Made by a program: the position numbers and the translations under genes | In this document: piece after piece, positions 2,033 to 32,846 of the stretch | How the letters are laid out: every line of letters begins with the position of its first letter | How positions within the stretch are numbered: position 1 is the stretch's first letter | Notes under the pieces: generated by a model | Told to the model about the DNA's origin: nothing | Seen by the model: the letters and a program-made list of their open reading frames with translations, nothing else | The model's database searches: none | DNA from: Candidatus Daviesbacteria bacterium | GTDB taxonomy: Bacteria > Patescibacteriota > Microgenomatia > Daviesbacterales > UBA10151 | Direction of reading: 5' to 3' | Assembly (NCBI GenBank): GCA_016186985.1 | Contig: JACPKO010000061.1 | Coordinates: forward strand, 1 to 37,443 | Length of the DNA stretch: 37,443 bases

Positions 2033-3432
2033 TTAACTCTCCTTTTAAAGATATGTAAACTTTTTTCTTGATGGATTTCTTGCCAGGCTTGATCCTGTTT
2101 TAGGTCTGCCAATCTTTGTTGTAATTCCCCGGGTCCCATAAAGTAATAGGCTAAGCTTGTATCAACAACAATATACTCAGAATCGAGGATTTCCGGATAC
2201 AAATAAATTTTTTCCCTATTTATAAGATGCGGCACAATAGGAGATTGGGCGGAAACCGGGCTATTTTTAGGGATTATCTTCAAACCGTTATTTATATAGT
2301 TAAAGCGGGATAGATCAGGAGGCTTTGATTGTAGGGTTGAAATGATCAAACTGTTAGGCGCAAGGCCTGAGGTAAACAAGAAAAATAATAGCAGGATGAT
2401 TACTGGTTTGTGCGGAATATTAAACGATTTAATCCCGAATATGGCGCTATACGCTAAAAATGGTTCTAAATTAATATTGTGATGGAATTCGGTACCCCAC
2501 ATTTGAATATAACTTGAGGTAAATCTTAGGTATAAATAAGGAAATACTGCTAACCAGCTAAAAGGTGAAAGTATCGGCATAAAGGCAAATCCTTTGTAAA
2601 GGGCAAAAAAAGTCCCGAGTTTAACCTGACTGTTAAAAAGTTGATCTAAAAATATTCCCGGCCTGATGATCAAGAGGTAAATTAGTTCTAACGGACTGGT
2701 AAGAGGGAGAATAGAGGTCGATATATAAGCTTGGTCAGCGCCTTCCCAAATTAGAGGCATAAGAAAAAACTTAATAAAAATAAAAGAAATTACAGAAAAA
2801 ATTAATGTTGATATCCCTGCAAGCCTTTGTTTTTTTAACAGCTGGAATAACCCCAAACCAAAAATGAAAATTGGGATATCCTCTTTAAACAATAAACTAA
2901 AAACCAGGGTTATCCAGTAAAATTTCCACCTCTTAAAATGCCAAAAGTAGACAATTAACGATAAGGGCAAAACTGAGATTGTGGCAAGATGGAAATCGAA
3001 ATTAATAGCGGTAAGGACACCTATTGAGGTCAGATACGAAAGACTAACCAGGAAACTAAGCAATTTATTTTTTAACAGGTTAAGGGAAACCAGATATATC
3101 GGTATAGAAGCCAGGCTAACAAAAAGGGCCTGTATTATTAACAAAGTAACAGGGGATGGAAAGATTCTGTATAAGGGCGCAAAAAAAATTAAAATGGGTC
3201 CAAAATGGTCTCCCAGCAAGTTCATATGTTTTAGCGTGTTATAAAAAATACCCTGTCCGTAAAGGTAGGTGGATTGGGTATAAATTCCTAAATCAAAGGC
3301 ATGGGAATCATATTGAAGATGTTTTTTTAAGGAATGATAGGTATAAAACAGGAAAAAGAATAAGTTTAAAATCAGCAGAACGATATAATTTTTGCTAAAA
3401 AAATTCCTGAAGTTATACAAAAAATACTTCAT
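2029..3432 (-). CDS. DUF2079-family polytopic membrane protein (GT-C-like putative glycosyltransferase)
   Basis: Multi-TM protein with AFDLGIYTQ and GDHFGPILIFFAPLY motifs, which I recognise from DUF2079. Confidence 0.6.
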   Translation of the reverse strand: MKYFLYNFRNFFSKNYIVLLILNLFFFLFYTYHSLKKHLQYDSHAFDLGIYTQSTYLYGQGIFYNTLKHMNLLGDHFGPILIFFAPLYRIFPSPVTLLIIQALFVSLASIPIYLVSLNLLKNKLLSFLVSLSYLTSIGVLTAINFDFHLATISVLPLSLIVYFWHFKRWKFYWITLVFSLLFKEDIPIFIFGLGLFQLLKKQRLAGISTLIFSVISFIFIKFFLMPLIWEGADQAYISTSILPLTSPLELIYLLIIRPGIFLDQLFNSQVKLGTFFALYKGFAFMPILSPFSWLAVFPYLYLRFTSSYIQMWGTEFHHNINLEPFLAYSAIFGIKSFNIPHKPVIILLLFFLFTSGLAPNSLIISTLQSKPPDLSRFNYINNGLKIIPKNSPVSAQSPIVPHLINREKIYLYPEILDSEYIVVDTSLAYYFMGPGELQQRLADLKQDQAWQEIHQEKSLHIFKRRVN

Positions 3433-3457
3433 GAAAGTAGGTATTTAAAGAGAAGTC

Positions 3458-19371: not shown

Positions 19372-20967
19372 ATGACTAAGGTTTGGAAAATCAAGAAGAA
19401 ACTAAGCGAAGATATATTGGAACAGCTTTTAATCAATCGTAGATTAACCTCCGAAATAGATAAAGAAAACTTCTTTAATCCAAAAATTGAAGATTACCAA
19501 AAAGATCTGGAAATTCCGGGAATTGAAAAATCCCTAAGAAGAATTAAGGAGGCTATCGAAAAAGAGGAGTTAATGGTGGTATTTGGAGATTATGATGTGG
19601 ATGGAATATCGGCTTGCGCAATTTTGTACAAAGCCTTAACTTCCCTGGGAGCAAAAGTTTTGCCTTACATTCCCCATCGGGAAAAAGAGGGATATGGTTT
19701 ATCAAAGTTGGGCCTGGAATTTGCCAGGGATTCGGATGCGGGAGTCGTAATTACGGTTGACAACGGTATTGTGGCACTTGAGGAGGCTGAATTTGCAAAA
19801 TCCATGGGGCTTGATTTAATCATTACAGATCACCATGCTCCGGGGGATAAAAAGCCTGAGGCGTTTTCGATTATCCACTCAACCAAAATGTGCGGGGCGG
19901 CAGTTGCATGGTGTTTAATACAGGGGATAGTGAAAAGTGAATTAAGGGAAGAGTTATTAGAGCTTGTTGCGGTTGCAACTATTGCGGATATGATGCCTCT
20001 TTTGGGTTTAAACAGGGCTTTTGTTGTTGAAGGGCTAAAACATCTCAATAAAACAACGAATTTGGGACTTCTTGCCTTATTAAATGAGAGCGGGATTGAA
20101 AAGGGTCAGGTTAAATCTTTTGAGGTTGGGCATATAATTGCGCCAAGAATTAATGCGATAGGAAGATTAGAACACGCAATTGATGCACTGAGGCTTCTTT
20201 GCACAAATGATCAGGTGAAGGCAAAAAGACTTGCAAAACTTTTATCTGAAACAAATTCAAAAAGACAGGATTTAACTATGAAAGCTTATGAAGAAGCTCT
20301 CGTGCTGGCCGAAAAAAATACAGGCAAAAAAATCCAGGTTTTATATTCCAGGGATTGGCATCAAGGTATTATCGGGCTTGTTGCCTCAAGAATTACAGAT
20401 CAATATTTTATGCCAACTATCGCAATATCGATAAACAAAGAGGTTTCCAAAGGTTCGGCAAGAAGTATTGAGGGGATTAATATAACTGAAGTTTTAAGAA
20501 GCTGTTCGGATTTTCTGGTTGACGTTGGCGGCCATGCGGGAGCTGCGGGCTTTAGTATTAAGACAGAGTCTGTTCAGGTTTTTAAAAAAAGAATTGAACA
20601 GTTAGTTGAGGAACTTGGTTCTGAAGTTTCAGAAAAGTTTTTAACAATTGAGGCAGAACTACCGTTTAGTAAAATTAATAAGACTTTAGTTAAAAAACTT
20701 GGGGATTTCGAGCCCTTTGGTCTCGAAAATCCTCAACCGGTTTTTGCCTCGTTTAACGCAAAACTTACTGATATTAGGACCGTTGGTAACGGCAAGCACT
20801 TGAAGTTTAGGGCCGAAGGAATTGATGCTATTGCTTTTAATATGGGGGAGCTGGAATCTTTTTTGCAGCCCGGGCAGCTCATAAACTTGGCATATATCCT
20901 GGAAATAAATCAATTTAACGGTAGCGAGACTTTGCAGCTTAAGGTTAAAGATATACAACTGGCTTAG
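19372..20967 (+). CDS. recJ: Single-stranded-DNA-specific exonuclease RecJ
   Basis: DHH motifs VFGDYDVDGISA, VDNGI, ITDHH. DHHA1 motif GGHAGAAGF. Confidence 0.9.
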   Translation: MTKVWKIKKKLSEDILEQLLINRRLTSEIDKENFFNPKIEDYQKDLEIPGIEKSLRRIKEAIEKEELMVVFGDYDVDGISACAILYKALTSLGAKVLPYIPHREKEGYGLSKLGLEFARDSDAGVVITVDNGIVALEEAEFAKSMGLDLIITDHHAPGDKKPEAFSIIHSTKMCGAAVAWCLIQGIVKSELREELLELVAVATIADMMPLLGLNRAFVVEGLKHLNKTTNLGLLALLNESGIEKGQVKSFEVGHIIAPRINAIGRLEHAIDALRLLCTNDQVKAKRLAKLLSETNSKRQDLTMKAYEEALVLAEKNTGKKIQVLYSRDWHQGIIGLVASRITDQYFMPTIAISINKEVSKGSARSIEGINITEVLRSCSDFLVDVGGHAGAAGFSIKTESVQVFKKRIEQLVEELGSEVSEKFLTIEAELPFSKINKTLVKKLGDFEPFGLENPQPVFASFNAKLTDIRTVGNGKHLKFRAEGIDAIAFNMGELESFLQPGQLINLAYILEINQFNGSETLQLKVKDIQLA

Positions 20968-20972
20968 AATGC

Positions 20973-21000
20973 TGGACATTTTCTTATTTAGTGATATACT
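20973..21000 (+). promoter_or_regulatory. Extended -10 promoter of the aro operon leader
   Basis: TGGACA (20973-20978), 16 nt, TG-A-TATACT (20992-21000). The predicted start site at about 21007-21008 coincides with the leader ATG. Confidence 0.45.
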
Positions 21001-21007
21001 TATCTTA

Positions 21008-21076
21008 ATGGATCGCAAAATCTCGAAATGGTTTAGTTATTTTAGCTTTTACTTCCGCAAGGAGGGGGTTTTTTAA
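21008..21076 (+). CDS. Candidate attenuator leader peptide MDRKISKWFSYFSFYFRKEGVF (22 aa), absent from the ORF track
   Basis: ATG at 21008, TAA at 21074-21076. Residues 8-16 (WFSYFSFYF) are 7 of 9 aromatic: TGG, TTT x3, TTC, TAT, TAC. The ORF overlaps alternative RNA helices and lies upstream of the aromatic-amino-acid operon. Confidence 0.55.
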   Translation: MDRKISKWFSYFSFYFRKEGVF

Positions 21077-21127
21077 TGCTTTAAAAAAGCATTAAAGTAA
21101 TAAGCCCCCGAGAGGGGGATTTTTTTT
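21052..21127 (+). promoter_or_regulatory. Attenuator RNA with 1:2, 2:3 (antiterminator) and 3:4 (terminator) alternative pairings
   Basis: 1:2 is CUUCC (21052-56) / GGAGG (21061-65) with a GCAA loop. 2:3 is GGGGGUUUUUUA (21064-75) / UAAUAAGCCCCC (21098-21109). 3:4 is CCCCC (21105-09)-GAGA-GGGGG (21114-18). An extra hairpin AATGCTTT/AAAGCATT sits at 21075-21093. Confidence 0.5.
21105..21127 (+). terminator. Intrinsic terminator (attenuator 3:4 helix)
   Basis: 5-bp all-GC stem with a GAGA tetraloop, followed by A plus T8 (21120-21127). Confidence 0.65.
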
Positions 21128-21140
21128 GGTTTTTTAGTAT

Positions 21141-22058
21141 TTGAAAAAATATATGAAAAATAAAAGAATCACAAAATTTACATTAGATAAGCAAAGCTTT
21201 CTTTCAGATAAGCAAAGCTTTCTTTCAGATAAAATAATAATAGCAGGGCCTTGTGCTGCGGAAACGCGAGAGCAGGTGATAAAAAGCGCTAAAGAGGCAA
21301 AGAAACGGGGTGTTAAAATATTGAGAGCATCTTTGTGGAAACCCCGTACTGAGCCTGGATTTGACGGAGTAAAAGAAAAAGGAATTCCGTGGCTTATAGA
21401 GGTTGCAAAAATGGGCATAACCCCTGGTACTGAGGTTTTAAATGCGCGCAATACAAAAGCAGTACTTAATGCTATCGCAAAAAATGTATCTAAGCCCTCC
21501 GCACTAATTTGGATTGGTGCCAGAAACCAAAACCATGATGAGCAGATCGCTATTGCAAAAGTTGTAAACAGATACCCTTGGGCCCGCTTTATGTTTAAAA
21601 ACCAGCCATGGAGGCACGAAAGGCACTGGAGAGGGATTCTAAAGCACATTTTAAACAGTAAAATCGGGAAGGATAAGGTTATCTTAAGTCATAGGGGATT
21701 TGATCCAGGAACCGACGAACCCCGCGATCCAAAATCACTGCGCAATGTGCCTGATTACAAGATGGCTATGAGGATTAAAACCGAAGAGGATGTTGAAATG
21801 ATCATTGACCCTTCTCATATGGGAGGTACTGTTGAAAACGTAATTAAAATTACCAAAGAAGCGATGCGTTATGGTGAAAATGGTGCTTCATTTGATGGGT
21901 TTATTTTTGAAGTTCATCCGAACCCTTCGGTTGCGTGGACTGATGCCAAACAGCAATTAACGTGGGAGCAGTTTGATGAATTAATGGAGGAATATCAAAA
22001 ATTGCAATCCGAACTTTCTATTAAACCTGGACACACATCCGCCCAAGTTTCGTTCTGA
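21141..22058 (+). CDS. aroF: 3-deoxy-7-phosphoheptulonate (DAHP) synthase, type I-beta
   Basis: IAGPCAAETREQ, LRASLWKPRT, IGARNQNH, LSHRGF, IDPSHMGG, FEVHPNP...AWTDAKQQL. The ORF opens at TTG 21141 and the first ATG is at 21153. Confidence 0.85.
   Translation: MKKYMKNKRITKFTLDKQSFLSDKQSFLSDKIIIAGPCAAETREQVIKSAKEAKKRGVKILRASLWKPRTEPGFDGVKEKGIPWLIEVAKMGITPGTEVLNARNTKAVLNAIAKNVSKPSALIWIGARNQNHDEQIAIAKVVNRYPWARFMFKNQPWRHERHWRGILKHILNSKIGKDKVILSHRGFDPGTDEPRDPKSLRNVPDYKMAMRIKTEEDVEMIIDPSHMGGTVENVIKITKEAMRYGENGASFDGFIFEVHPNPSVAWTDAKQQLTWEQFDELMEEYQKLQSELSIKPGHTSAQVSF
21186..21232. repeat. 21-bp in-frame tandem duplication (2 copies plus 5 nt) in the aroF N-terminal extension
   Basis: GATAAGCAAAGCTTTCTTTCA at 21186-21206 and 21207-21227, then GATAA. 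Encodes DKQSFLS-DKQSFLS-DK. Confidence 0.95.
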
Positions 22059-23686
22059 TGCTAGATTCTAATTCAAAAATCCATATAGTCGGAGGTACAG
22101 GAGTCATGGGTTTGTGGCTTAGGAATTTTTTGGAATCCCTCGGTATTCATGTCACGATTAGTGATGAAAAAATTAAGCCAGGGTTAAATTTACAACAATC
22201 TGACTTTATTTTTATTTCTGTTCCTATTGCAGTAGCTCCCAAAGTTATCTTAGAAACTGCAAAAAAAGCAGATAAAGCTTGCTTGATTATTGACCTCTCA
22301 TCAGTAAAATCAGAAACAGCAAAAGCTTTAAAGGAATGTAAAAGAAATAGTTTATCCTTACATTTTCTTTTTGGACCTTCCATCAGTTCGATTAAAAATC
22401 AAAGGATAATTTATCAAACTTTCGGGTCAAAGGAAAAATCCAACTGGATTTTAAAATTATTTGAAAACGAAGGAGCCCAGATTATTGAGTTAAATTCAAA
22501 GGCGCATGACTTTTTAATGGCGCATATACAATCGTTAACGCATTTTATTAACCTGACTTTTGCCCAAATATTAATGGACGATAAAATCGGCTTAAAAGGG
22601 AATGTTTCTACGCCGGTGCACCTTTCCCAATTATCAGCAGCAATGCGGGTTTTGTCTCAAAATCCAAAACTTCTAGGCGAAATTCAGGTTTTAAATCCGG
22701 AATTTTTATCCGTTTTGGAAAATTTTTTAAAAATCCAAAAGAAATTAATTCAGAAAATCAAAGGTAAAAAGATTTTAGAAATTGAAGAGCAATTTATGAA
22801 CTTGAGAAAAAGTATGGAATCCGTTTCTGTTAAAATCGTTAAGAACCCGGAAATACATAAAACAGAAAAAAGCCTGATAAACGACTTAAATATTGGCTAT
22901 TTAGGCCCGAAAGGAACATTCTCTAACCAGGCGGTTTTGAAAATGTTTTCTGATACAAAAAACACCCTGATACCCGCAGGGAATATTTACGATATGTTTG
23001 AAGATCTAGATAAAGATAAAGCTGATCTTATAGTAGCCCCGGCAGAAAATACAATTGAGGGGACAGTAAGGGAAACGCTAGATTTGTTATTTGACTACAA
23101 CGCAAAAATAATCGGAAAAATTGATTTGGAAATCTCACAGTGTTTGCTTTCAAAGGGGAGAAGTTTAAAAGAGATAAAAAAAGTGATATCCCACCCCCAA
23201 GCTTTAAACCAATCCAGGGATTTTCTTAATGAATATATGCCAGGTGTTATTCTTGAGTCGAGCCCTTCGACAATCGCTTCGGTAGCGGAATTAAAAAATC
23301 CCGAAGTTGCGATAATCGGGCCGGAACTTGCAGCTAAAATTTATAACTTAAATGTTTTAAAAAAAGATATCCAAAATTCTAAGAACAACACCACAAGGTT
23401 TTATGTAATTTCAAAAAAGGATATCCTGAATCTAAAAAATAGGACAAAAAGTTTACTATTTTTATCAGTGTTTAACAGAGTCGGTATTTTAAGGGATATC
23501 CTTTCGATATTTGCTGACTTATCAATAAATTTAAATAAAATCGAATCCCGGCCGAGTAAGGAAAAAAATTGGGATTATTACTTTTTTATAGAAATTGAAC
23601 TTACAGATGATGATCCCAGATTCAATCAGGCATTAAACATATTAAAGCAATATTGCCCTACGATATTGGTTTTAGGTAAGCTGTAA
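22058..23686 (+). CDS. Bifunctional prephenate dehydrogenase (N) / prephenate dehydratase + ACT domain (C)
   Basis: N-terminal half: Rossmann IHIVGGTGVMG, ISVPI, DLSSVK, HFLFGP, AHDFLMAHIQSLTHF (TyrA). C-terminal half, from about 22890: IGYLGPKGTFSNQA, TRFYVIS, ESRPSK...WDYYFFIE (PheA catalytic + ACT). Confidence 0.85.
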   Translation: MLDSNSKIHIVGGTGVMGLWLRNFLESLGIHVTISDEKIKPGLNLQQSDFIFISVPIAVAPKVILETAKKADKACLIIDLSSVKSETAKALKECKRNSLSLHFLFGPSISSIKNQRIIYQTFGSKEKSNWILKLFENEGAQIIELNSKAHDFLMAHIQSLTHFINLTFAQILMDDKIGLKGNVSTPVHLSQLSAAMRVLSQNPKLLGEIQVLNPEFLSVLENFLKIQKKLIQKIKGKKILEIEEQFMNLRKSMESVSVKIVKNPEIHKTEKSLINDLNIGYLGPKGTFSNQAVLKMFSDTKNTLIPAGNIYDMFEDLDKDKADLIVAPAENTIEGTVRETLDLLFDYNAKIIGKIDLEISQCLLSKGRSLKEIKKVISHPQALNQSRDFLNEYMPGVILESSPSTIASVAELKNPEVAIIGPELAAKIYNLNVLKKDIQNSKNNTTRFYVISKKDILNLKNRTKSLLFLSVFNRVGILRDILSIFADLSINLNKIESRPSKEKNWDYYFFIEIELTDDDPRFNQALNILKQYCPTILVLGKL

Positions 23687-23688
23687 TT

Positions 23689-23967
23689 ATGAATGAAATT
23701 ACTAAATTACGTGCGCAAATAGATAAAATCGATGAAGAGCTGCTGGATCTTATTGCCGGGAGGGTTGAACTTGTAAGGCAGATCGGAATTGAAAAAAAGA
23801 AAGATGGGATCGGAGTAGTTGATGAAGATCGGGAGAGGAAAATTCTAAACGAATTAATGCTTAAGGCCGGGGAAAAAGGTATCAATCCGGAAATAGTTAA
23901 AAAAGTATGGAAAGTTTTAATTGATATATCTTATGAAATAGAGGGGGCTAAAAATGGAAATAGTTAA
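23689..23967 (+). CDS. aroQ: Chorismate mutase, AroQ class
   Basis: 92 aa. LRAQIDKIDEELLDLIAGRVELVRQIG and DEDRERKIL are typical of CM_2. Confidence 0.8.
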   Translation: MNEITKLRAQIDKIDEELLDLIAGRVELVRQIGIEKKKDGIGVVDEDRERKILNELMLKAGEKGINPEIVKKVWKVLIDISYEIEGAKNGNS

Positions 23968-24994
23968 TGTTTTTGACAGATATAATGTATATATAGGTTC
24001 CGGAATTTTAGGAAATATTAACGGGATTATAAATTTAGATAACTTCAGTAAAGTTATTGTTATTACGGATGAGAATATTCCTGCAAATTACCTAAAACAA
24101 TTTGAAAAAATTACTGTTCCGCCCGGGGAAAAATCTAAAAATATAGAAACCGTTAAATTGATTTGGGAAAAGATGCTGGAACTTGGATGCGACCGCAAAT
24201 CTTTGATAATTAATTTAGGGGGAGGGGTTATAGGTGATATGGGAGGATTTGCTGCTAGCTGCTATATGAGGGGGGTAAAATTTTTGCAGGTTTCAACCAC
24301 ATTACTCTCTTCAGTTGATGCTAGTGTTGGAGGAAAAGTTGGAATAGATTTTAACGGCGTAAAAAATTTAATTGGCACTTTTAACCAGCCAATCGGAGTT
24401 GTAATTGATATCGACACATTTAACAGCTTGTCAGATAGGGAATTTATCTCCGGTTTCGCAGAGATAATTAAACACGGGATAATAGCAGACACGGAATATT
24501 TTAAAAATGTTACTTCTAAAAAACCAGGGGAATTTTCAAAAGAAGAATTGATAGAAATTATTAAAAGATCCTGCGAGATAAAAGCGCAAATAATTTCAGA
24601 TGATGAAAAGGAAGCGGGCAATCGGAAATTATTAAACTTTGGTCATACAGTTGGGCATGCAATTGAAGGAATTTCTTTAGAAACAGACGATCCTTTACTA
24701 CATGGTGAAGCAGTCAGCATAGGTATGGTTGCTGAAGCAAAAATATCAAAAGAATTAGGCTTGATTGACGGTGTAACGGCTGAAAAAATTAAGGAAAGCC
24801 TAATGTTCGTGGGATTGCCTGTATCGTACAGCGTAGAAGATTTTGAAAAATTCTCCAGTCTTATCGGAAAAGATAAAAAAACGGAATCAGGGAAAATTAG
24901 ATGGACTCTGGTTAAAGGATTCGGGGAAGCCGCAATAAATCAGGAAGTCCCTGAGGATGTGATTAAAAAATCTCTTGCCTATATTTCCCAATAA
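23954..24994 (+). CDS. aroB: 3-dehydroquinate synthase
   Basis: GGGVIGDMGGFAASCYMRGVKFLQVSTTLLSSVDASVGGKVGI, LNFGHTVGHAIE and HGEAVSIGM. Confidence 0.9.
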   Translation: MEIVNVFDRYNVYIGSGILGNINGIINLDNFSKVIVITDENIPANYLKQFEKITVPPGEKSKNIETVKLIWEKMLELGCDRKSLIINLGGGVIGDMGGFAASCYMRGVKFLQVSTTLLSSVDASVGGKVGIDFNGVKNLIGTFNQPIGVVIDIDTFNSLSDREFISGFAEIIKHGIIADTEYFKNVTSKKPGEFSKEELIEIIKRSCEIKAQIISDDEKEAGNRKLLNFGHTVGHAIEGISLETDDPLLHGEAVSIGMVAEAKISKELGLIDGVTAEKIKESLMFVGLPVSYSVEDFEKFSSLIGKDKKTESGKIRWTLVKGFGEAAINQEVPEDVIKKSLAYISQ

Positions 24995-24999
24995 CTGCT

Positions 25000-26277
25000 A
25001 TGAAAAAATTTAAAATTGTTACTCCAGGTGAAATTTCAGGTGAGGTGTTAATTCCTCCCTCAAAAAGCTTAACCAACAGAGCTTTGGTTATTGCCTCTTT
25101 AATAAGGGGAGAGGTCAAAATTAAAAATCCACTGCAGTCAGGTGATACAAGGGCAATGATTGATTGCTTAAAAGAGCTGGGGATAAAGATCGAAGAGGAC
25201 CTTGGGGAAATTAGGGTGGTTGGGGATATTAGGGATATAAGGGAAAAGAAGTATCAACTAAACGCGAAACTTTCAGGGACAACAATCAGGTTTTTACTTG
25301 CACTAAGTTGTATCATCCCCGGAAAAAAAACAATTTTTGGCGAAGAATCTTTAAATAACAGACCGATTGGAGAATTAGCAGGAGCATTAAAAGACTTGGG
25401 GGCTGAAATTGAGTATTTGGAAAAACCCGGATACCCTCCTTTGTTGGTGAAATCCCCAAAGCTAACTGAGAAGAGGACAATACTTCATGGAGATATTTCC
25501 AGCCAATTTTTTTCAGCCTTACTGATGATAGGGCCTGTTATTGATGGTATTGAGATTTCCGTAATGGGGAAACAAATATCAAAGCCATATATAGATATGA
25601 CAATAGATTTAATGAATTACTTCGGTGTTAAAGTCGAGAATCAGGATTATAAAAGGTACGTAGTTGCGGTCGGGCAAAGATATATATGCAAAGATTATAA
25701 AGTAGAGGGTGATTATTCTTCAGCCGGTTATTTTCTTGCAATCGCCGCCCTGACTAAAACAACCTTGATACTGAAAAATTTAAATCCCAATTCAAGGCAA
25801 GCAGATAAAAACTTTATTGGAATAATTACACAATTAGGAAGTGAAATTAAATTTGAGGGAAATGATTTAATCATAACCGGAAATGGAATTAAAACTTTAA
25901 ATGTTGATATGGAAAATTGTCCTGACCAGGCTCAAACCTTAGCAGTGTTGCTAGCTTTTGCCAAGGGCAGATCAACAATTATGGGAATCAGGTCCTTAAG
26001 GGTTAAAGAAACAGAAAGAGTGCTCGCTTTGCAGACGGAGCTGTTAAAAATGGGGATTAAAACTGAATCAACTATTGATAGCCTGACGATCTTTGGTGGC
26101 GATCCGAAATCAGCGGAGATAGATACCTATAATGATCACAGGATGGCAATGGCTTTTGCGCTTGCAGGGACAGTTTTAGATGGAATGGTTATAAACAATC
26201 CGGAAGTTGTCACAAAAACTTTTCCTGATTTCTGGGAGAAGTTAGAAAGAGTTGGAGTGAAACATGAAGAAATTTAG
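25000..26277 (+). CDS. aroA: 3-phosphoshikimate 1-carboxyvinyltransferase (EPSP synthase)
   Basis: PPSKSLTNRALVIASL, LSGTTIRFL, LRVKETERV, DHRMAMAFALAG. Confidence 0.9.
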   Translation: MKKFKIVTPGEISGEVLIPPSKSLTNRALVIASLIRGEVKIKNPLQSGDTRAMIDCLKELGIKIEEDLGEIRVVGDIRDIREKKYQLNAKLSGTTIRFLLALSCIIPGKKTIFGEESLNNRPIGELAGALKDLGAEIEYLEKPGYPPLLVKSPKLTEKRTILHGDISSQFFSALLMIGPVIDGIEISVMGKQISKPYIDMTIDLMNYFGVKVENQDYKRYVVAVGQRYICKDYKVEGDYSSAGYFLAIAALTKTTLILKNLNPNSRQADKNFIGIITQLGSEIKFEGNDLIITGNGIKTLNVDMENCPDQAQTLAVLLAFAKGRSTIMGIRSLRVKETERVLALQTELLKMGIKTESTIDSLTIFGGDPKSAEIDTYNDHRMAMAFALAGTVLDGMVINNPEVVTKTFPDFWEKLERVGVKHEEI

Positions 26278-26878
26278 CAGAATATTTTTAGTAGGATTTA
26301 GAGCAACCGGCAAATCAACATTGGGTAAACTTTTAGCTGACAAATTAGGTTGGTCCTTTATGGATTTGGATTTTTTGATTACTCAGCAAGAGGGGGAAGA
26401 TGTTGGAAAAATAACAAAAAATGGAACAGACTGGCGCAGATTTCGGGAGATTGAAAATGAGGCTTTGAAAGAAATGTCGGTTTTAAAAAATGTGGTGATT
26501 AGCTGCGGCGGGGGAGTTGGGGTTAATGATATCCCGGGTTACGAATCAGGTAAAACTTATGGAGATTTAAATGCTCAAATTTTTAAAAACTCAAATAATA
26601 GTTTAGTTGTGCTTTTAAAAACTGATGAAAAAATAATAGAAGAACGTTTAAGGGTGCAGTATAAAAATAAAAAACTTATGCCTTTTTTAAGTGCAACTGA
26701 AGCAAAAAATTCAGAGGGTTTAGATTTGGATGATCTTATTGAAAAACTGGTTAAAGATTCAATGCAGGCTTTGAAAAAAAGAGAACCGTTGTATGAAAAA
26801 TTAACTGAAATTAAAATAGATACAAGCGGGAAAACAAATGAAAAAATTGCACAGGAGGTTTTAAATTATGTCAGATAG
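26264..26878 (+). CDS. aroK: Shikimate kinase
   Basis: P-loop LVGFRATGKSTLGKLLA, DLDFLI, FREIENEAL, GGGVG. Confidence 0.8.
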   Translation: MKKFSRIFLVGFRATGKSTLGKLLADKLGWSFMDLDFLITQQEGEDVGKITKNGTDWRRFREIENEALKEMSVLKNVVISCGGGVGVNDIPGYESGKTYGDLNAQIFKNSNNSLVVLLKTDEKIIEERLRVQYKNKKLMPFLSATEAKNSEGLDLDDLIEKLVKDSMQALKKREPLYEKLTEIKIDTSGKTNEKIAQEVLNYVR

Positions 26879-27689
26879 TGAGCTTACCAAAATTTGTATG
26901 AGTATCGGTTACCCGATTAAAAGCTCCAAATCGCCCTCACTCCATACGGTCGGTTACAAGGCTTTAGGGATTGAGGACAGGTATGTTTATCTTAGAGCAG
27001 AGGTAAAACCGGAAAATCTTAAAATGGCTGTAGATGGGATTAGAGGTTTGGGGATAAGGGGAGTGAGCGTAACCATGCCTCACAAACAGGAAGTTATGAA
27101 GTATTTAGATAAAATAGATGATACCGCGAAAAAAATCGGAGCTGTGAATACAATTGTAAATGAATCCGGAAAATTAATTGGTTATAACACAGACTGGATT
27201 GGAGCTGTTGATGCGCTAAAACAAAAAACGAAAATTAAAGGCAAAAAAATTGCGGTAATAGGAGCGGGAGGTGCTGCAAGAGCAATTGTTTTTGGAATAA
27301 TTAAAGAAGGCGGACGAGTTAAAATATTCAACAGAACTAAAGAAAAAGCTGAGGAGATAGCCAAATCTTTTGGATGTGAATTTGGAAACCTGGATGAAAT
27401 TTCCGAAATTAAAGACTTCGATATTATTATCAATTCAACTTCGATAGGAATGGGAAATCCGGATGAAAGCCCGGTTGATAAAAAATTAATAGGGAAAAAC
27501 CAAATTGTTTTTGATGTTGTTTACAATCCGAAAGAAACAAAACTTTTAAGACATGCAAAAGAAAAAGGGGCAGAAATAATTTTTGGCGCTGACATGCTTT
27601 TATATCAGGGCGCTGAGCAATTTAAACTTTACACCGGGCTGGATGCGCCGATTGAAGCGATGAAAAAATTTATGGAAATAGGAAAATGA
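26868..27689 (+). CDS. aroE: Shikimate 5-dehydrogenase
   Basis: SKSPSLHTVGYKALG, VTMPHKQEV, GAVNTIV, GYNTDWIG, GAGGAARA. Confidence 0.9.
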   Translation: MSDSELTKICMSIGYPIKSSKSPSLHTVGYKALGIEDRYVYLRAEVKPENLKMAVDGIRGLGIRGVSVTMPHKQEVMKYLDKIDDTAKKIGAVNTIVNESGKLIGYNTDWIGAVDALKQKTKIKGKKIAVIGAGGAARAIVFGIIKEGGRVKIFNRTKEKAEEIAKSFGCEFGNLDEISEIKDFDIIINSTSIGMGNPDESPVDKKLIGKNQIVFDVVYNPKETKLLRHAKEKGAEIIFGADMLLYQGAEQFKLYTGLDAPIEAMKKFMEIGK

Positions 27690-28372
27690 TGAAAATTAAA
27701 TATTGTTTGCCAATCCGGAAAAATAAAAAAGATGAAGTTTTAAAAATCATCGCAGAAAACCCTGAATATGATTTTTATGAAATCTGGCTCGATTACATAG
27801 AAGATTTGGATGCTGAATTTGTTAAAATTTTGCTCACAGAATATGACCAAAAACTAATTTTTGTCTTTAGGAGAAATAATCTGGAAGAAGAAAACATGGA
27901 CTTTGCTAACCGGAAAAAATACATTGAAATGCTAAATGGCTCAAAAGCATATCTGGATTTGGACATTGAAGCCCAAAAGGATGAAGTAAAGTTTTTAACA
28001 GATGAAAAATTAAATGTAAGTTTAATTGCTTCTTACCATAATTATGAAGAGACTCCGGAGTACGAAAAGCTTGATAAGATCGTTACTAAAATGATGGAGA
28101 TTAATCCGGCAGTTTACAAAATTTCAACATACTGCAACAGCCAGGAAGACGCTCTAGCTTTGCTTAAGGTTTTGCTCGCTTTAAACAAAGAAGAAGTCAA
28201 AAAAATTATTTTAGGAATGGGCGAAAATGGACTTATTACTAGGATTTTTGGTACACTATGGGATAATGAAATGGTTTTTGCCCCTTTGAAAGCTGAGGAA
28301 GCTTCTGCAGAAGGCCAAATGACCAAAAGAGATTTAGAAACAATTTTTGAAAGGATTGAAAATGCCGGGTAA
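27686..28372 (+). CDS. aroD: 3-dehydroquinate dehydratase, type I
   Basis: [17 protein letters not shown] and YKIST (Schiff-base Lys context). About 228 aa. Confidence 0.75.
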
Positions 28373-29444
28373 CAGTTTTGGACAACTATTTAGAATTACA
28401 ACATTCGGAGAGTCGCACGGCGGCTGTGTGGGATGCGTGGTTGACGGATGCCCTCCTGGGATTGAAATTACTGAAACTGAAATCCAAAAGGAATTAGACA
28501 GAAGAAAACCCGGACAGTCCTCAATCACAACCCCTCGAAAAGAGGAAGACGAAGTTAAAATTTTATCCGGAATTTTTCAGGGAAAAACTACAGGTACTCC
28601 GATTTTAATGCTTGCATACAACAAAGATATCCGTCCTGAAGATTATCAGGAAATGAAAGATTTATTTAGACCAGGGCATGCAGATTTTACCTATACTAAA
28701 AAATATGGCTTTAGAGATTGGCATGGGTCCGGGAGGGCATCTGCCAGAGAAACTTTAGCCAGAGTTGCAGCCGGCGCAATCGCAAAAAAATATTTAAAAG
28801 AAAAATTAGGAATTGAAATTTTATCCTACGTTGAGCAGGTAGGGGATATTAAAACTGATGCAGATTTTAATTCTGTTACCCCGGATCAGATAGAATCTAA
28901 TATCGTCCGATGCCCTGATACTGAAATTGCCAAAAAAATGATTTCAAAAATTGAGGAAGTACAAGCGGAGGGGGATTCTATCGGAGGGGTTATCAGGGGA
29001 GTAATCAAAAATGTTCCTGTAGGTTTAGGGGAGCCGGTGTTTGATAAATTAAATGCCGATCTTGGAAAAGGAATGCTGTCTGTTAACGCTGTTAAAGGTT
29101 TTGAGATCGGTTCGGGATTTGAGGGAGTAAAAATGCAGGGATCGGCGCATAATGATGAATTTATTTCGGAGGGAGGGAAAGTTAAAACTAAATCAAATAA
29201 TGCCGGTGGAACACTGGGTGGAATTTCAAATGGGGAAACAATTTATTTTAGGGTTGCGTTTAAGCCTGTTTCAACAATTTCAAAAAAACAAAAAACTGTC
29301 ACCCTAAAAGGTGAGGAAGCTGAGCTAGAAGCAGCAGGACGTCATGATCCCTGTGTTTTACCGCGGGCAGTCCCGATTGTAGATGCAATGTCTGCGCTTG
29401 TTATTATGGACCACTACCTCCGCCATAAAGCCCAGAATTTATAA
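28362..29444 (+). CDS. aroC: Chorismate synthase
   Basis: [37 protein letters not shown]-like [17 protein letters not shown] at 28362 with AAGGA SD. The ORF-track TTG at 28347 is unlikely to be the start. Confidence 0.93.
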
Positions 29445-31811: not shown

Positions 31812-32846
31812 TCAATCAGATTTTTCTACGAATTCATTTTTGACAGCCTGCACGATAGATGCAAACCCGGATCCTTCAAACACATATACAGGTTGTAAGT
31901 AATTTGTATATTCTTCAGATAAATAATAAGCTAAGTATATTTTAGATATTGAAACGTTTCCTCTTAATGGTTCAATCGCAATAAAACCCTCCCCGTTTTT
32001 TAATTCTTCAAAAGCCTCGTCAACCTTTTTTATTGGATATGTTCCAAAATTGTTCAAATCAATTGGCCAGAAAATATAATCCATAGAAATGTATTTCTTA
32101 TTAAGGTTCTGATTATTTATGGAAATTGTTTTGATCAATCCCTCATTAAATTTAGGGGTTACGATGGGAATATCTTCGACATTCTCCTGCCATAGATTTA
32201 TTGTGGCCTGTGTGCTGTCTTTTTTGACAGGGTTATTGTAAGTAACTCGCGTCCGGCCATTTTTTAATTGGTCTTTTAATAATTCCCTCGAGGACAAAAA
32301 ATTCTTAAATGACTGGCTTTGCTTATCTTCATTGATAAAATCTTCAATCCTTTCAAAATTATCTCCGCTGCTTGTGGCATAATTTTTTCTGAATTTAAAA
32401 TTACCGGTATCCAAATCAACAATTAACTCTCCTCCGCTTATATCGTCGAGAAATTTATACTGAGTCGGCGAAATAGCCTCAGGATTTTTATTAAACTCAA
32501 GTGCGCCGGCCAAATTTTTTGCCCTGTCTAGAGCTAAAAGGTCGGTCGCAAGCTGGGCGATGGAGTAAACTTTAAAAAGCTCAGGAAGCTTTTCCGGCAA
32601 AGCCCCGGTCTCGGTATCTAGAGAGTAGGAGAAATTGGATGAGGCGACAGTAGGGTCCGGAAATTTTAATTTGGGAAGTGGTCCAAAAGCCAGAGTTGGT
32701 TTTTCAACAACCGGCGGAAGGCCCGGTAAATAAATATAATTGTAGTAATAATGCCAGATACCCCAAGTTGCAAGAGCTATAAATATGGTAATTGCTGTGA
32801 CGATCAAGCCCTTCTTGGTTAATGCAGAGGCTTCAGTTAAAGTCAT
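31812..32846 (-). CDS. Hypothetical membrane-anchored extracytoplasmic protein
   Basis: A single N-terminal TM (LIVTAITIFIALATWGIW). No catalytic motif recognised. Confidence 0.4.
   Translation of the reverse strand: MTLTEASALTKKGLIVTAITIFIALATWGIWHYYYNYIYLPGLPPVVEKPTLAFGPLPKLKFPDPTVASSNFSYSLDTETGALPEKLPELFKVYSIAQLATDLLALDRAKNLAGALEFNKNPEAISPTQYKFLDDISGGELIVDLDTGNFKFRKNYATSSGDNFERIEDFINEDKQSQSFKNFLSSRELLKDQLKNGRTRVTYNNPVKKDSTQATINLWQENVEDIPIVTPKFNEGLIKTISINNQNLNKKYISMDYIFWPIDLNNFGTYPIKKVDEAFEELKNGEGFIAIEPLRGNVSISKIYLAYYLSEEYTNYLQPVYVFEGSGFASIVQAVKNEFVEKSD

Follow-up and report, generated by a model that had tools for sequence, protein, structure and literature searches.

The 37,443-nt window analysed here (the whole stretch of DNA under study, positions 1 to 37,443 of contig JACPKO010000061.1 of a Candidatus Daviesbacteria bacterium, assembly GCA_016186985.1) contains, between recJ and a gene encoding 3-deoxy-D-arabino-heptulosonate 7-phosphate (DAHP) synthase, an element that very probably attenuates transcription of the aromatic amino-acid operon by a ribosome-mediated, leader-peptide mechanism. 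Its sequence parts, their conservation, their covariation and a folding switch that depends on the ribosome footprint were computed here. In a wider reading, which we consider likely, the element would provide the Candidate Phyla Radiation (CPR) with its first regulatory RNA as well as its first evidence for transcription attenuation coupled to translation, and it would be a member of a family conserved across the Microgenomates (Daviesbacteria, Levybacteria), in which the charging of Trp, Phe and Tyr tRNAs would be read together from a leaderless or nearly leaderless mini-gene controlling de novo aromatic synthesis.

Re-reading of the sequence recovered, at unchanged positions between recJ and the DAHP synthase gene, all parts listed in the original prediction. 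On the plus strand, the recJ stop codon TAG (20965-20967) is followed by a -35-like hexamer TGGACA (20973-20978) and, after a 16-nt spacer, by an extended -10 box TGaTATACT (20992-21000), both assigned by consensus match. The leader open reading frame (ORF) MDRKISKWFSYFSFYFRKEGVF (21008-21076) starts with the ATG at 21008 and comprises 22 sense codons and the TAA at 21074-21076. Its codons 8-16 (21029-21055) form the putative regulatory run W-F-S-Y-F-S-F-Y-F, 7 of 9 being aromatic (1 Trp, 4 Phe, 2 Tyr). Starting from another in-frame ATG, at 20969, the ORF would comprise 35 codons; this ATG is situated inside the promoter and is not conserved in the relatives. Segment 1 (CUUCC, 21052-21056) pairs with GGAGG (21061-21065) to helix 1:2, a putative weak anti-antiterminator. 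Segment 2 (GGAGGGGGUUUUUUAAUGCUUU, 21061-21082), assigned by folding, represents the 5' half of the antiterminator and contains the G-run GGGGG (21064-21068) as well as the leader stop codon; segment 3 (21086-21109), assigned by folding and by covariation with segment 2, represents the 3' half. The last 5 nt of segment 3 (CCCCC, 21105-21109) are shared with the intrinsic terminator CCCCC-GAGA-GGGGG-A-U8 (helix 3:4, 21105-21127, with GGGGG at 21114-21118 and U8 at 21120-21127), of which they form the 5' arm; the hairpin and U-tract of this terminator are among the cleanest terminator matches in a scan of the 16-kb region. The start positions of the DAHP synthase genes of relatives suggest ATG 21153 rather than the in-frame TTG 21141 as start of this gene, in which case the gap to recJ, originally given as 173 nt, amounts to approximately 185 nt.

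Conservation of the leader upstream of DAHP synthase genes

The comparison set consisted of the DNA upstream of DAHP synthase in 16 distinct lineages, namely the window and 15 others from Daviesbacteria, Levybacteria and related Microgenomates, the loci of the relatives being referred to by L-numbers. Across the lineages examined, DAHP synthase identity to the window protein is 49-89%; the most similar DAHP synthases (71-91% identity) and a larger group with approximately 50-58% identity derive from metagenome-assembled genomes of Candidatus Daviesbacteria, Levybacteria and the "Patescibacteria group", which places the window among the Microgenomates of the CPR, probably in a Daviesbacterium. 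The element was observed directly upstream of DAHP synthase in 16 out of 16 lineages, each with a sigma-70-like promoter, an ATG-initiated ORF of 16-25 codons, 5-8 aromatic codons, four complementary segments and a tract of U6-8. Conservation of the small ORF, of its aromatic run and stop position, and compensatory changes in the helices had been proposed as a check of the original prediction; the ORF and the three-helix geometry are kept throughout the 16 lineages. Two of the relatives, L003 and L004 (CAYNRM010000002.1 and CAYOSW010000013.1), are labelled "uncultured Gammaproteobacteria", but show the order recJ-leader-DAHP synthase with 82-84% protein identity to the window and are probably mis-binned or mislabelled CPR contigs.

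At least eight different gene contexts occur upstream of the element, and recJ is found there in the close clade only. The upstream neighbours include ilvE (L013), rplT (L017, L020, and L025), trpA (L019), a transaldolase gene (L022), tyrA (L024), a transposase fragment (L015), and a divergent gene (L014), and in L023 recJ is located 9 kb away on the opposite strand. Since the element stays with DAHP synthase across these contexts, it belongs to the aro operon and not to recJ. This bears on the caveat, attached to the original prediction, that the terminator simply serves recJ, and on the fuller alternative of an ordinary recJ terminator combined with a chance ORF in T-rich DNA and no regulation at all. 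For such an explanation speak the terminator position 138 nt downstream of the recJ stop, the ease with which TTT and TAT codons arise in T-rich spacers, and the number of consensus promoter matches over the 16-kb region, 47 against 44.7 expected from shuffles. It is countered by the changing upstream genes, by a promoter between upstream gene and ORF in nearly every lineage, by the shuffle test of the ORF described below, and by the distance of only 25 nt between the U-tract and ATG 21153, due to which any operon promoter has to be situated upstream of the terminator. Judged from the comparative sequence data, this explanation is already refuted, and we regard it as exceedingly unlikely.

The leader peptides of the relatives read MSDRRISKWFSFFNFYFTFRKEGAV (L001), MDRKTSKWFSFFYFYFRKEEAS (L002), MKKHSNWFSFTYFYFRKEEAS (L003), MINKSINWFSFYYFTFRKEGAV (L004), MDMKRSKWFNYFSFYYFRKEEAS (L009), MIKKTLNWFSFTYFNFRKEAIS (L010), MTTKSNNWFNFFYFTS (L013), MKLHLANSFYFYFTSLNGR (L014), MNIQSQVNYFWFYFATRREVS (L015), MSSAQAWFYFYFTSLTGR (L017), MNISQVNYFWFTYFTPLREAS (L019), MKQFNNRKITFWFYFTS (L020), MNKVQTNYFWFYFTTIMGVG (L022), MNCILSFYFYFTIPNGR (L024), and MKQSNNNTIVFWFYFTS (L025). 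Their aromatic runs, together with that of the window, are WFSYFSFYF, WFSFFNFYFTF, WFSFFYFYF, WFSFTYFYF, WFSFYYFTF, WFNYFSFYYF, WFSFTYFNF, WFNFFYF, SFYFYF (twice), YFWFYF (twice), WFYFYF, YFWFTYF, and FWFYF (twice). The run is thus conserved as aromatic identity, with swaps between F and Y, alternation of TTT with TTC and of TAT with TAC, and usually one TGG. N-terminal residues and those following the run vary by clade (RKEGVF, SLNGR, TRREVS, or none after FTS). The reading frame and the stop position are conserved in the 16 lineages, the stop being located in or just before segment 2. In dinucleotide-preserving shuffles of the window leader, an ATG-initiated ORF with at least 5 aromatic codons in 7 occurred in 9 of 2000 cases, and for each of 13 relatives an equally aromatic ORF was obtained in 0-14 of 2000 dinucleotide shuffles, so that the earlier caveat of TTT and TAT codons arising by chance from a T-rich spacer is not upheld.

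The promoter of the window is one of five matches of 10 out of 12 consensus positions in 16 kb, with the top score, and the sole one of these with an upstream TG. For 13 of the 15 leaders scored, a -35 hexamer (TGGACA, TGGACT, TAGACA, or TTGACA/T; at least 4 of 6 positions matching) is located 16-18 nt before the -10 box, which is conserved as TATACT, TATAAT or TAAGAT, often with an upstream TG. From the end of the -10 box to the leader ATG, 7 nt were counted in the window, in agreement with the 7-8 nt originally estimated, 6-10 nt in the close clade and 7-17 nt in distant relatives. Due to this proximity and to the lack of a Shine-Dalgarno sequence before the leader ATG, the leader mRNA is probably leaderless or provided with a very short 5' leader. 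Scored within 20 nt of the start of the 32 predicted window genes, a Shine-Dalgarno-like motif was present in only about 7. Some window genes carry a -10-like box few bases before the ATG, e.g., TATAAT 6 nt before the minus-strand gene 31812-32846, which suggests widespread Shine-Dalgarno-independent or leaderless initiation in this genome. As a separate observation, the region 21060-21084 contains a perfect Shine-Dalgarno-like AAGGAGG within the leader ORF, followed by the overlapping stop-start UAAUG and a two-codon mini-ORF AUG-CUU-UAA. This mini-ORF (AUG-NCU-UAA) is probably incidental, since it occurs in only 4 of 7 close-clade sequences and is absent from L003, L009, and L010.

Alternative helices and the modelled ribosome footprint

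The 140-nt region folds at -36.6 kcal/mol (z = -2.4). Helix 2:3 as given by RNAfold is bipartite, with 21064-21071 paired to 21102-21109 and 21072-21082 to 21086-21096; the 12-bp helix of the original prediction used the same G-run and C-run, but this bipartite antiterminator is preferred over its contiguous form. The terminator hairpin of the window amounts to -9.9 kcal/mol. In per-sequence folds, energies range from -14.9 to -25.5 kcal/mol for the antiterminator and from -7.7 to -11.8 kcal/mol for the terminator, so that the comparison of both structures, which had been suggested as a check, is in favour of 2:3 once it has formed. The terminators of the relatives consist of a GC-rich stem of 5-7 bp followed by U6-8. 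Their stems are fully complementary and occur in three types, CCCCC/GGGGG, CCUCCC/GGGAGG, and CCCCGC/GCGGGG, the last one representing L025. MAFFT alignments of the terminators are out of register as loop lengths differ, and the support for 3:4 is therefore given by the per-sequence folds and the three stem types. Segments 2, 3 and 4 co-vary, as GGGGG/CCCCC/GGGGG in some leaders and as GGGAGG/CCUCCC/GGGAGG in others.

Helix 1:2 is present in most leaders, with -7.4 kcal/mol in the window and -4.4 to -13 kcal/mol across the set. Its weakness, already mentioned as a caveat, is real in the window, while stronger versions exist in relatives. In L003, L009, and L010, 1:2 is outcompeted in the local fold by another hairpin formed within segment 2. 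The overlap between 1:2 and 2:3 comprises 2 nt only in the window, where the minimum-free-energy fold holds both, and is complete in L014 and L017. The position of helix 1:2 is not homologous between clades.

Covariation was evaluated on an alignment (A1) produced by plain MAFFT and not fitted to any structure, from which RNAalifold itself recovers the 2:3 helix. On A1, 80% of the cells of 2:3 are paired compared to 73.7% in shuffles (reached in 0 of 500), and controls with slid partners do not exceed 62%. The covariation score is 0.313 against 0.195 in shuffled alignments (0 of 500), with four pairs changed on both sides. A 16-row alignment including two rows outside of the model-building shows similar covariation, and 4-5 double-sided pair changes are found over both alignments. 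Furthermore, a covariance model built from A1 recovers L024 and L025, neither of which is contained in the model, and cognate antiterminator halves average -19.3 kcal/mol compared to -12.8 +/- 0.9 kcal/mol for swapped halves (0 of 20000 permutations). While the C-terminus of the peptide is not conserved in sequence, the RNA pairing encoded by the same nucleotides is kept, with compensatory changes.

The ribosome was modelled as a mask extending to 12 nt beyond the first nucleotide of the codon in the A site, and for 14 leaders the unmasked RNA was folded, stopping before segment 4. In all 14 leaders, the computed folds keep segment 3 paired as long as the A site is occupied by a codon of the aromatic run other than its final one. 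At this final codon, approximately half of the leaders have already lost part of the pairing, and when the A site has moved one or two codons beyond the run or has reached the stop codon, segment 3 is free in 14 out of 14. In case of the window, 5 of 5 segment-3 bases are paired for codons 8-15, 3 of 5 for codon 16 and 0 of 5 from codon 17 onward. In this model, the relation between footprint and segments is the one that defines attenuators of the trp and pheA type.

The following mechanism is proposed. Transcription would start at or within few nt of the leader AUG from the TGGACA/TGaTATACT promoter, and a ribosome would translate the 22-codon leader close behind the RNA polymerase. Upon shortage of charged tRNA-Trp, tRNA-Phe or tRNA-Tyr, the ribosome would stall on the run at 21029-21055, its footprint covering segment 1 and leaving segment 2 (21061-21082) free to pair with the emerging segment 3 (21086-21109). 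The C-run of the terminator would thereby be sequestered and the polymerase would continue into the DAHP synthase gene. With an ample supply of aromatic aminoacyl-tRNAs, the ribosome would reach the UAA (21074-21076) inside segment 2 and mask this segment, upon which CCCCC/GGGGG and U8 would form and transcription would stop at approximately 21127. Judged by codon content only, shortage of any one of Trp, Phe, and Tyr should suffice, which would amount to multivalent control.

Alternative helices and covariation do not in themselves name the sensor. The switch might be real and the ORF incidental, with sensing by a protein that binds the RNA as TRAP or PyrR do, by uncharged tRNA as in a T-box, or by a small molecule. 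The lack of a Shine-Dalgarno sequence before the leader ORF favours such a sensor, and so does the trp operon of L023, which has a terminator/antiterminator leader with a T-box-like GGUGGCACCGC string and no Trp-rich ORF; according to this leader, these organisms seem to use other attenuation sensors too. However, an ATG near the promoter, an open frame and the aromatic run are kept in the 16 lineages, as is a stop codon within or shortly before segment 2, and the run is conserved as codon identity with swaps among F, Y, and W rather than as a fixed RNA sequence. Only approximately 45-55 nt are available upstream of segment 1; they are predicted to be mostly unstructured and contain no conserved unpaired motif or extra domain. 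TRAP-like (G/U)AG repeats were considered and rejected: the window contains two, both UAG and too few for a TRAP site, and distant relatives contain none. Finally, a non-ribosomal sensor would not require the switch point of the footprint to coincide with the end of the aromatic run, as seen in 14 out of 14 leaders.

Searches for known RNA families point in the same direction. With Rfam 15 at gathering thresholds, a single tRNA was found in the window and no T-box, PyrR or other match at the locus, nor any match in six relatives. The best sub-threshold matches are Phe_leader (RF01859) with 24.0 bits against a gathering threshold of 55 and Trp_leader (RF00513) with 18.3 against 41. For T-box (RF00230), no match was obtained in 20900-21250 even at E <= 10, and the approximately 45 nt upstream of segment 1 are too short for a Stem I. 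Taken together, a sensor other than the ribosome appears improbable.

A ribosome could also act by nascent-peptide arrest in the manner of TnaC, the W/F peptide sensing a free aromatic amino acid in the exit tunnel and stalling upon abundance. Trp beside Phe is indeed conserved in 13 of 16 lineages, and the stop codon is close to the regulatory structure. Such stalling would, however, induce biosynthesis in the presence of ample end products, contrary to the logic expected of a biosynthetic operon. Arrest peptides need a fixed spacing to the peptidyl-transferase centre, whereas here the peptide around the run is unconserved, W, F, and Y succeed each other in varying order, Trp is missing from L014 and L024, and 2 to 7 residues follow the run. 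We consider this type of arrest to be very unlikely.

Several points weigh against attenuation by a translating ribosome as proposed above. In the window, helix 1:2 is weak and shares only its 2 nt with segment 2 of 2:3, and the full-length minimum-free-energy fold is the antiterminator, due to which an untranslated window leader might read through instead of terminating. Five of the 14 relatives (L002, L003, L009, L010, and L019) favour the terminator at equilibrium even with segment 1 masked; equilibrium folding alone thus fails to reproduce the switch in these leaders, whereas a kinetic view of the nascent RNA does, and the switch there would rely on co-transcriptional kinetics. Due to the relatedness of the sequences, part of the covariation signal may reflect shared ancestry, and the shuffle-based measures are inflated. 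The sub-threshold Phe_leader match carries little weight, since the minus strand scores almost as well (22.3 bits against 24.0 on the plus strand). The leader ORF has no Shine-Dalgarno sequence, but this is set against the scarcity of such motifs among the window genes, and the term leaderless does not apply uniformly, since the spacing between -10 box and ATG reaches 17 nt in distant relatives. The start and the 3' ends of the transcript, the translation of the leader ORF, its reaction to starvation and the coupling of transcription and translation in this uncultured organism are all predictions made from sequence.

Downstream operon and further attenuator-like elements

The operon downstream of the leader (21153-29444, plus strand) comprises nine genes as identified by a Pfam scan, in the order DAHP synthase, prephenate dehydrogenase-prephenate dehydratase-ACT fusion, chorismate mutase, 3-dehydroquinate (DHQ) synthase, 5-enolpyruvylshikimate 3-phosphate (EPSP) synthase, shikimate kinase, shikimate dehydrogenase, DHQ dehydratase I, and chorismate synthase. 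The match between regulatory codons and operon products, pointed out originally, is borne out by these assignments, which cover the common precursor chorismate and the Phe and Tyr branches. Close to its 5' end (21186-21227), the DAHP synthase gene carries the 21-nt sequence AGATAAGCAAAGCTTTCTTTC as an exact in-frame tandem duplicate, which adds a 7-residue repeat; the encoded protein has 301 aa compared to 283-292 aa in most close relatives. In L017 (1480-1503) and L018 of the Levybacteria, unlike in the window, the terminator 3' arm GGGAGG is located 7 nt before the DAHP synthase ATG. There it could double as Shine-Dalgarno sequence, and terminator formation might also block translation.

In L023, a related Daviesbacteria contig, trpEGDCFBA is located directly upstream of the aro leader and has a 360-nt leader of its own (3091-3450). 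This contains a terminator, GGCCCUUGCAAG...UUUGCAAGGGU6, with an alternative upstream partner UGCAAGG, and the T-box-like string AAGGUGGCACCGCC, of which UGGC would fit a tRNA ending in GCCA. No Trp-rich small ORF is present before trpE, and Rfam yields no T-box match in this leader even at E <= 1. It may be a divergent T-box or an attenuator of another kind.

A second match of the covariance model in L023 (18570-18765; 36.6 bits, E approximately 1e-4) comprises a promoter and a 35-codon ORF, MMSKMIAIDLQRVESLVVLLITLLLGAFLGGLFRF*, rich in Leu, Val, and Ile, and precedes a 73-aa gene of no assigned function. It displays the four-segment geometry UCCUCC/GGGAGG/CCUCCC/GGGAGG-U7 with z = -3.9 and could be either an attenuator of the branched-chain type or a small membrane-protein gene with its own terminator. 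At the edge of L024 (1-55), a second antiterminator/terminator copy (24.6 bits), truncated by the end of the locus, is situated upstream of a 175-aa gene of no assigned function and tyrA (prephenate dehydrogenase). The main leader of L024 precedes a gene in which DAHP synthase is fused to chorismate mutase, with pheS and pheT next in order. With the copy before tyrA in L024 and the Leu/Val/Ile-rich element of L023, the aro leader may be one of a set of paralogous attenuators.

Significance and relation to known attenuators

To our knowledge, almost nothing is known about gene regulation in the CPR/Patescibacteria. These organisms have so far escaped cultivation, possess tiny genomes and are, as a rule, regarded as unable to synthesize amino acids. 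A conserved, probably starvation-sensing attenuator before a complete shikimate/Phe/Tyr operon argues for real, regulated use of this pathway in some Microgenomates, and it implies that in these cells the ribosome trails the RNA polymerase closely enough for attenuation. Initiation without a Shine-Dalgarno sequence, probably leaderless, would then suffice as sensor. If the wider reading given at the outset is true, supposedly auxotrophic, host-dependent cells make aromatic amino acids on demand. Furthermore, the element represents a defined RNA family missing from Rfam, which can be used for the annotation of CPR genomes and for finding short and read-through transcripts in groundwater metatranscriptomes. 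A textbook mechanism is thereby extended to a conserved attenuator family in Microgenomates, and none is added. In agreement with the remark in the original prediction that no description from CPR-like genomes was known, a full-text literature search revealed no paper linking leader peptides or attenuation with CPR/Patescibacteria.

As in pheL-pheA and trpL-trpE of E. coli, four segments are present, the regulatory codons are situated in or before segment 1, the stop codon is placed to mask segment 2, and 3:4 is a GC-rich hairpin followed by a U-tract. Differences to pheL and trpL are the codons for three amino acids instead of one and the lack of a Shine-Dalgarno sequence. The terminator of trpL is its most stable helix, whereas the antiterminator observed here is a long bipartite hairpin far more stable than the terminator. 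Multivalent leaders are known from the E. coli operons thr (Thr and Ile) and ilvGMEDA (Ile/Leu/Val), with which the aro leader shares codons for several end products of a branched pathway in one leader. From these two, as well as from ilvL of C. glutamicum, it differs in pathway and amino acids, and its sequence is unrelated.

The closest functional analogue is the aroR-aroF attenuator of C. glutamicum, where a Phe-Tyr-Phe leader precedes the DAHP synthase gene (Neshat et al. 2014 as cited in PMC11802643; Mentz et al. 2013, PMC4046766; PMC3890552), and where the element responds to Phe and not to Tyr (PMC11802643). In the same organism, the leader peptide of ilvL (ilvBNC) is translated from a leaderless mRNA with a three-hairpin attenuator (PMC11857589; for the leaderless state see also Morbach 2000 as cited in PMC4046766). 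In C. glutamicum, the mechanism is thus backed by experiments both before a DAHP synthase gene and for leaderless leaders. In view of aroR-aroF (PMC11802643, PMC4046766) and ilvL (PMC11857589), the novelty originally claimed for a mixed aromatic leader before DAHP synthase and for a leaderless leader, respectively, was overstated; new are the phylum and the inclusion of Trp, while the mechanism itself is known. Both aroR-aroF and the element described here have a short mixed-aromatic leader directly before the DAHP synthase gene, with a ribosome-mediated terminator/antiterminator switch in the former and a predicted one in the latter, and C. glutamicum commonly uses leaderless mRNAs, as is probable for the leader described here. 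In contrast, aroR-aroF belongs to the Actinobacteria and has three aromatic codons and no Trp, whereas the leaders of the Microgenomates contain 5-8, usually with one Trp, and the operon of the window encodes the whole shikimate pathway together with the Phe and Tyr branches.

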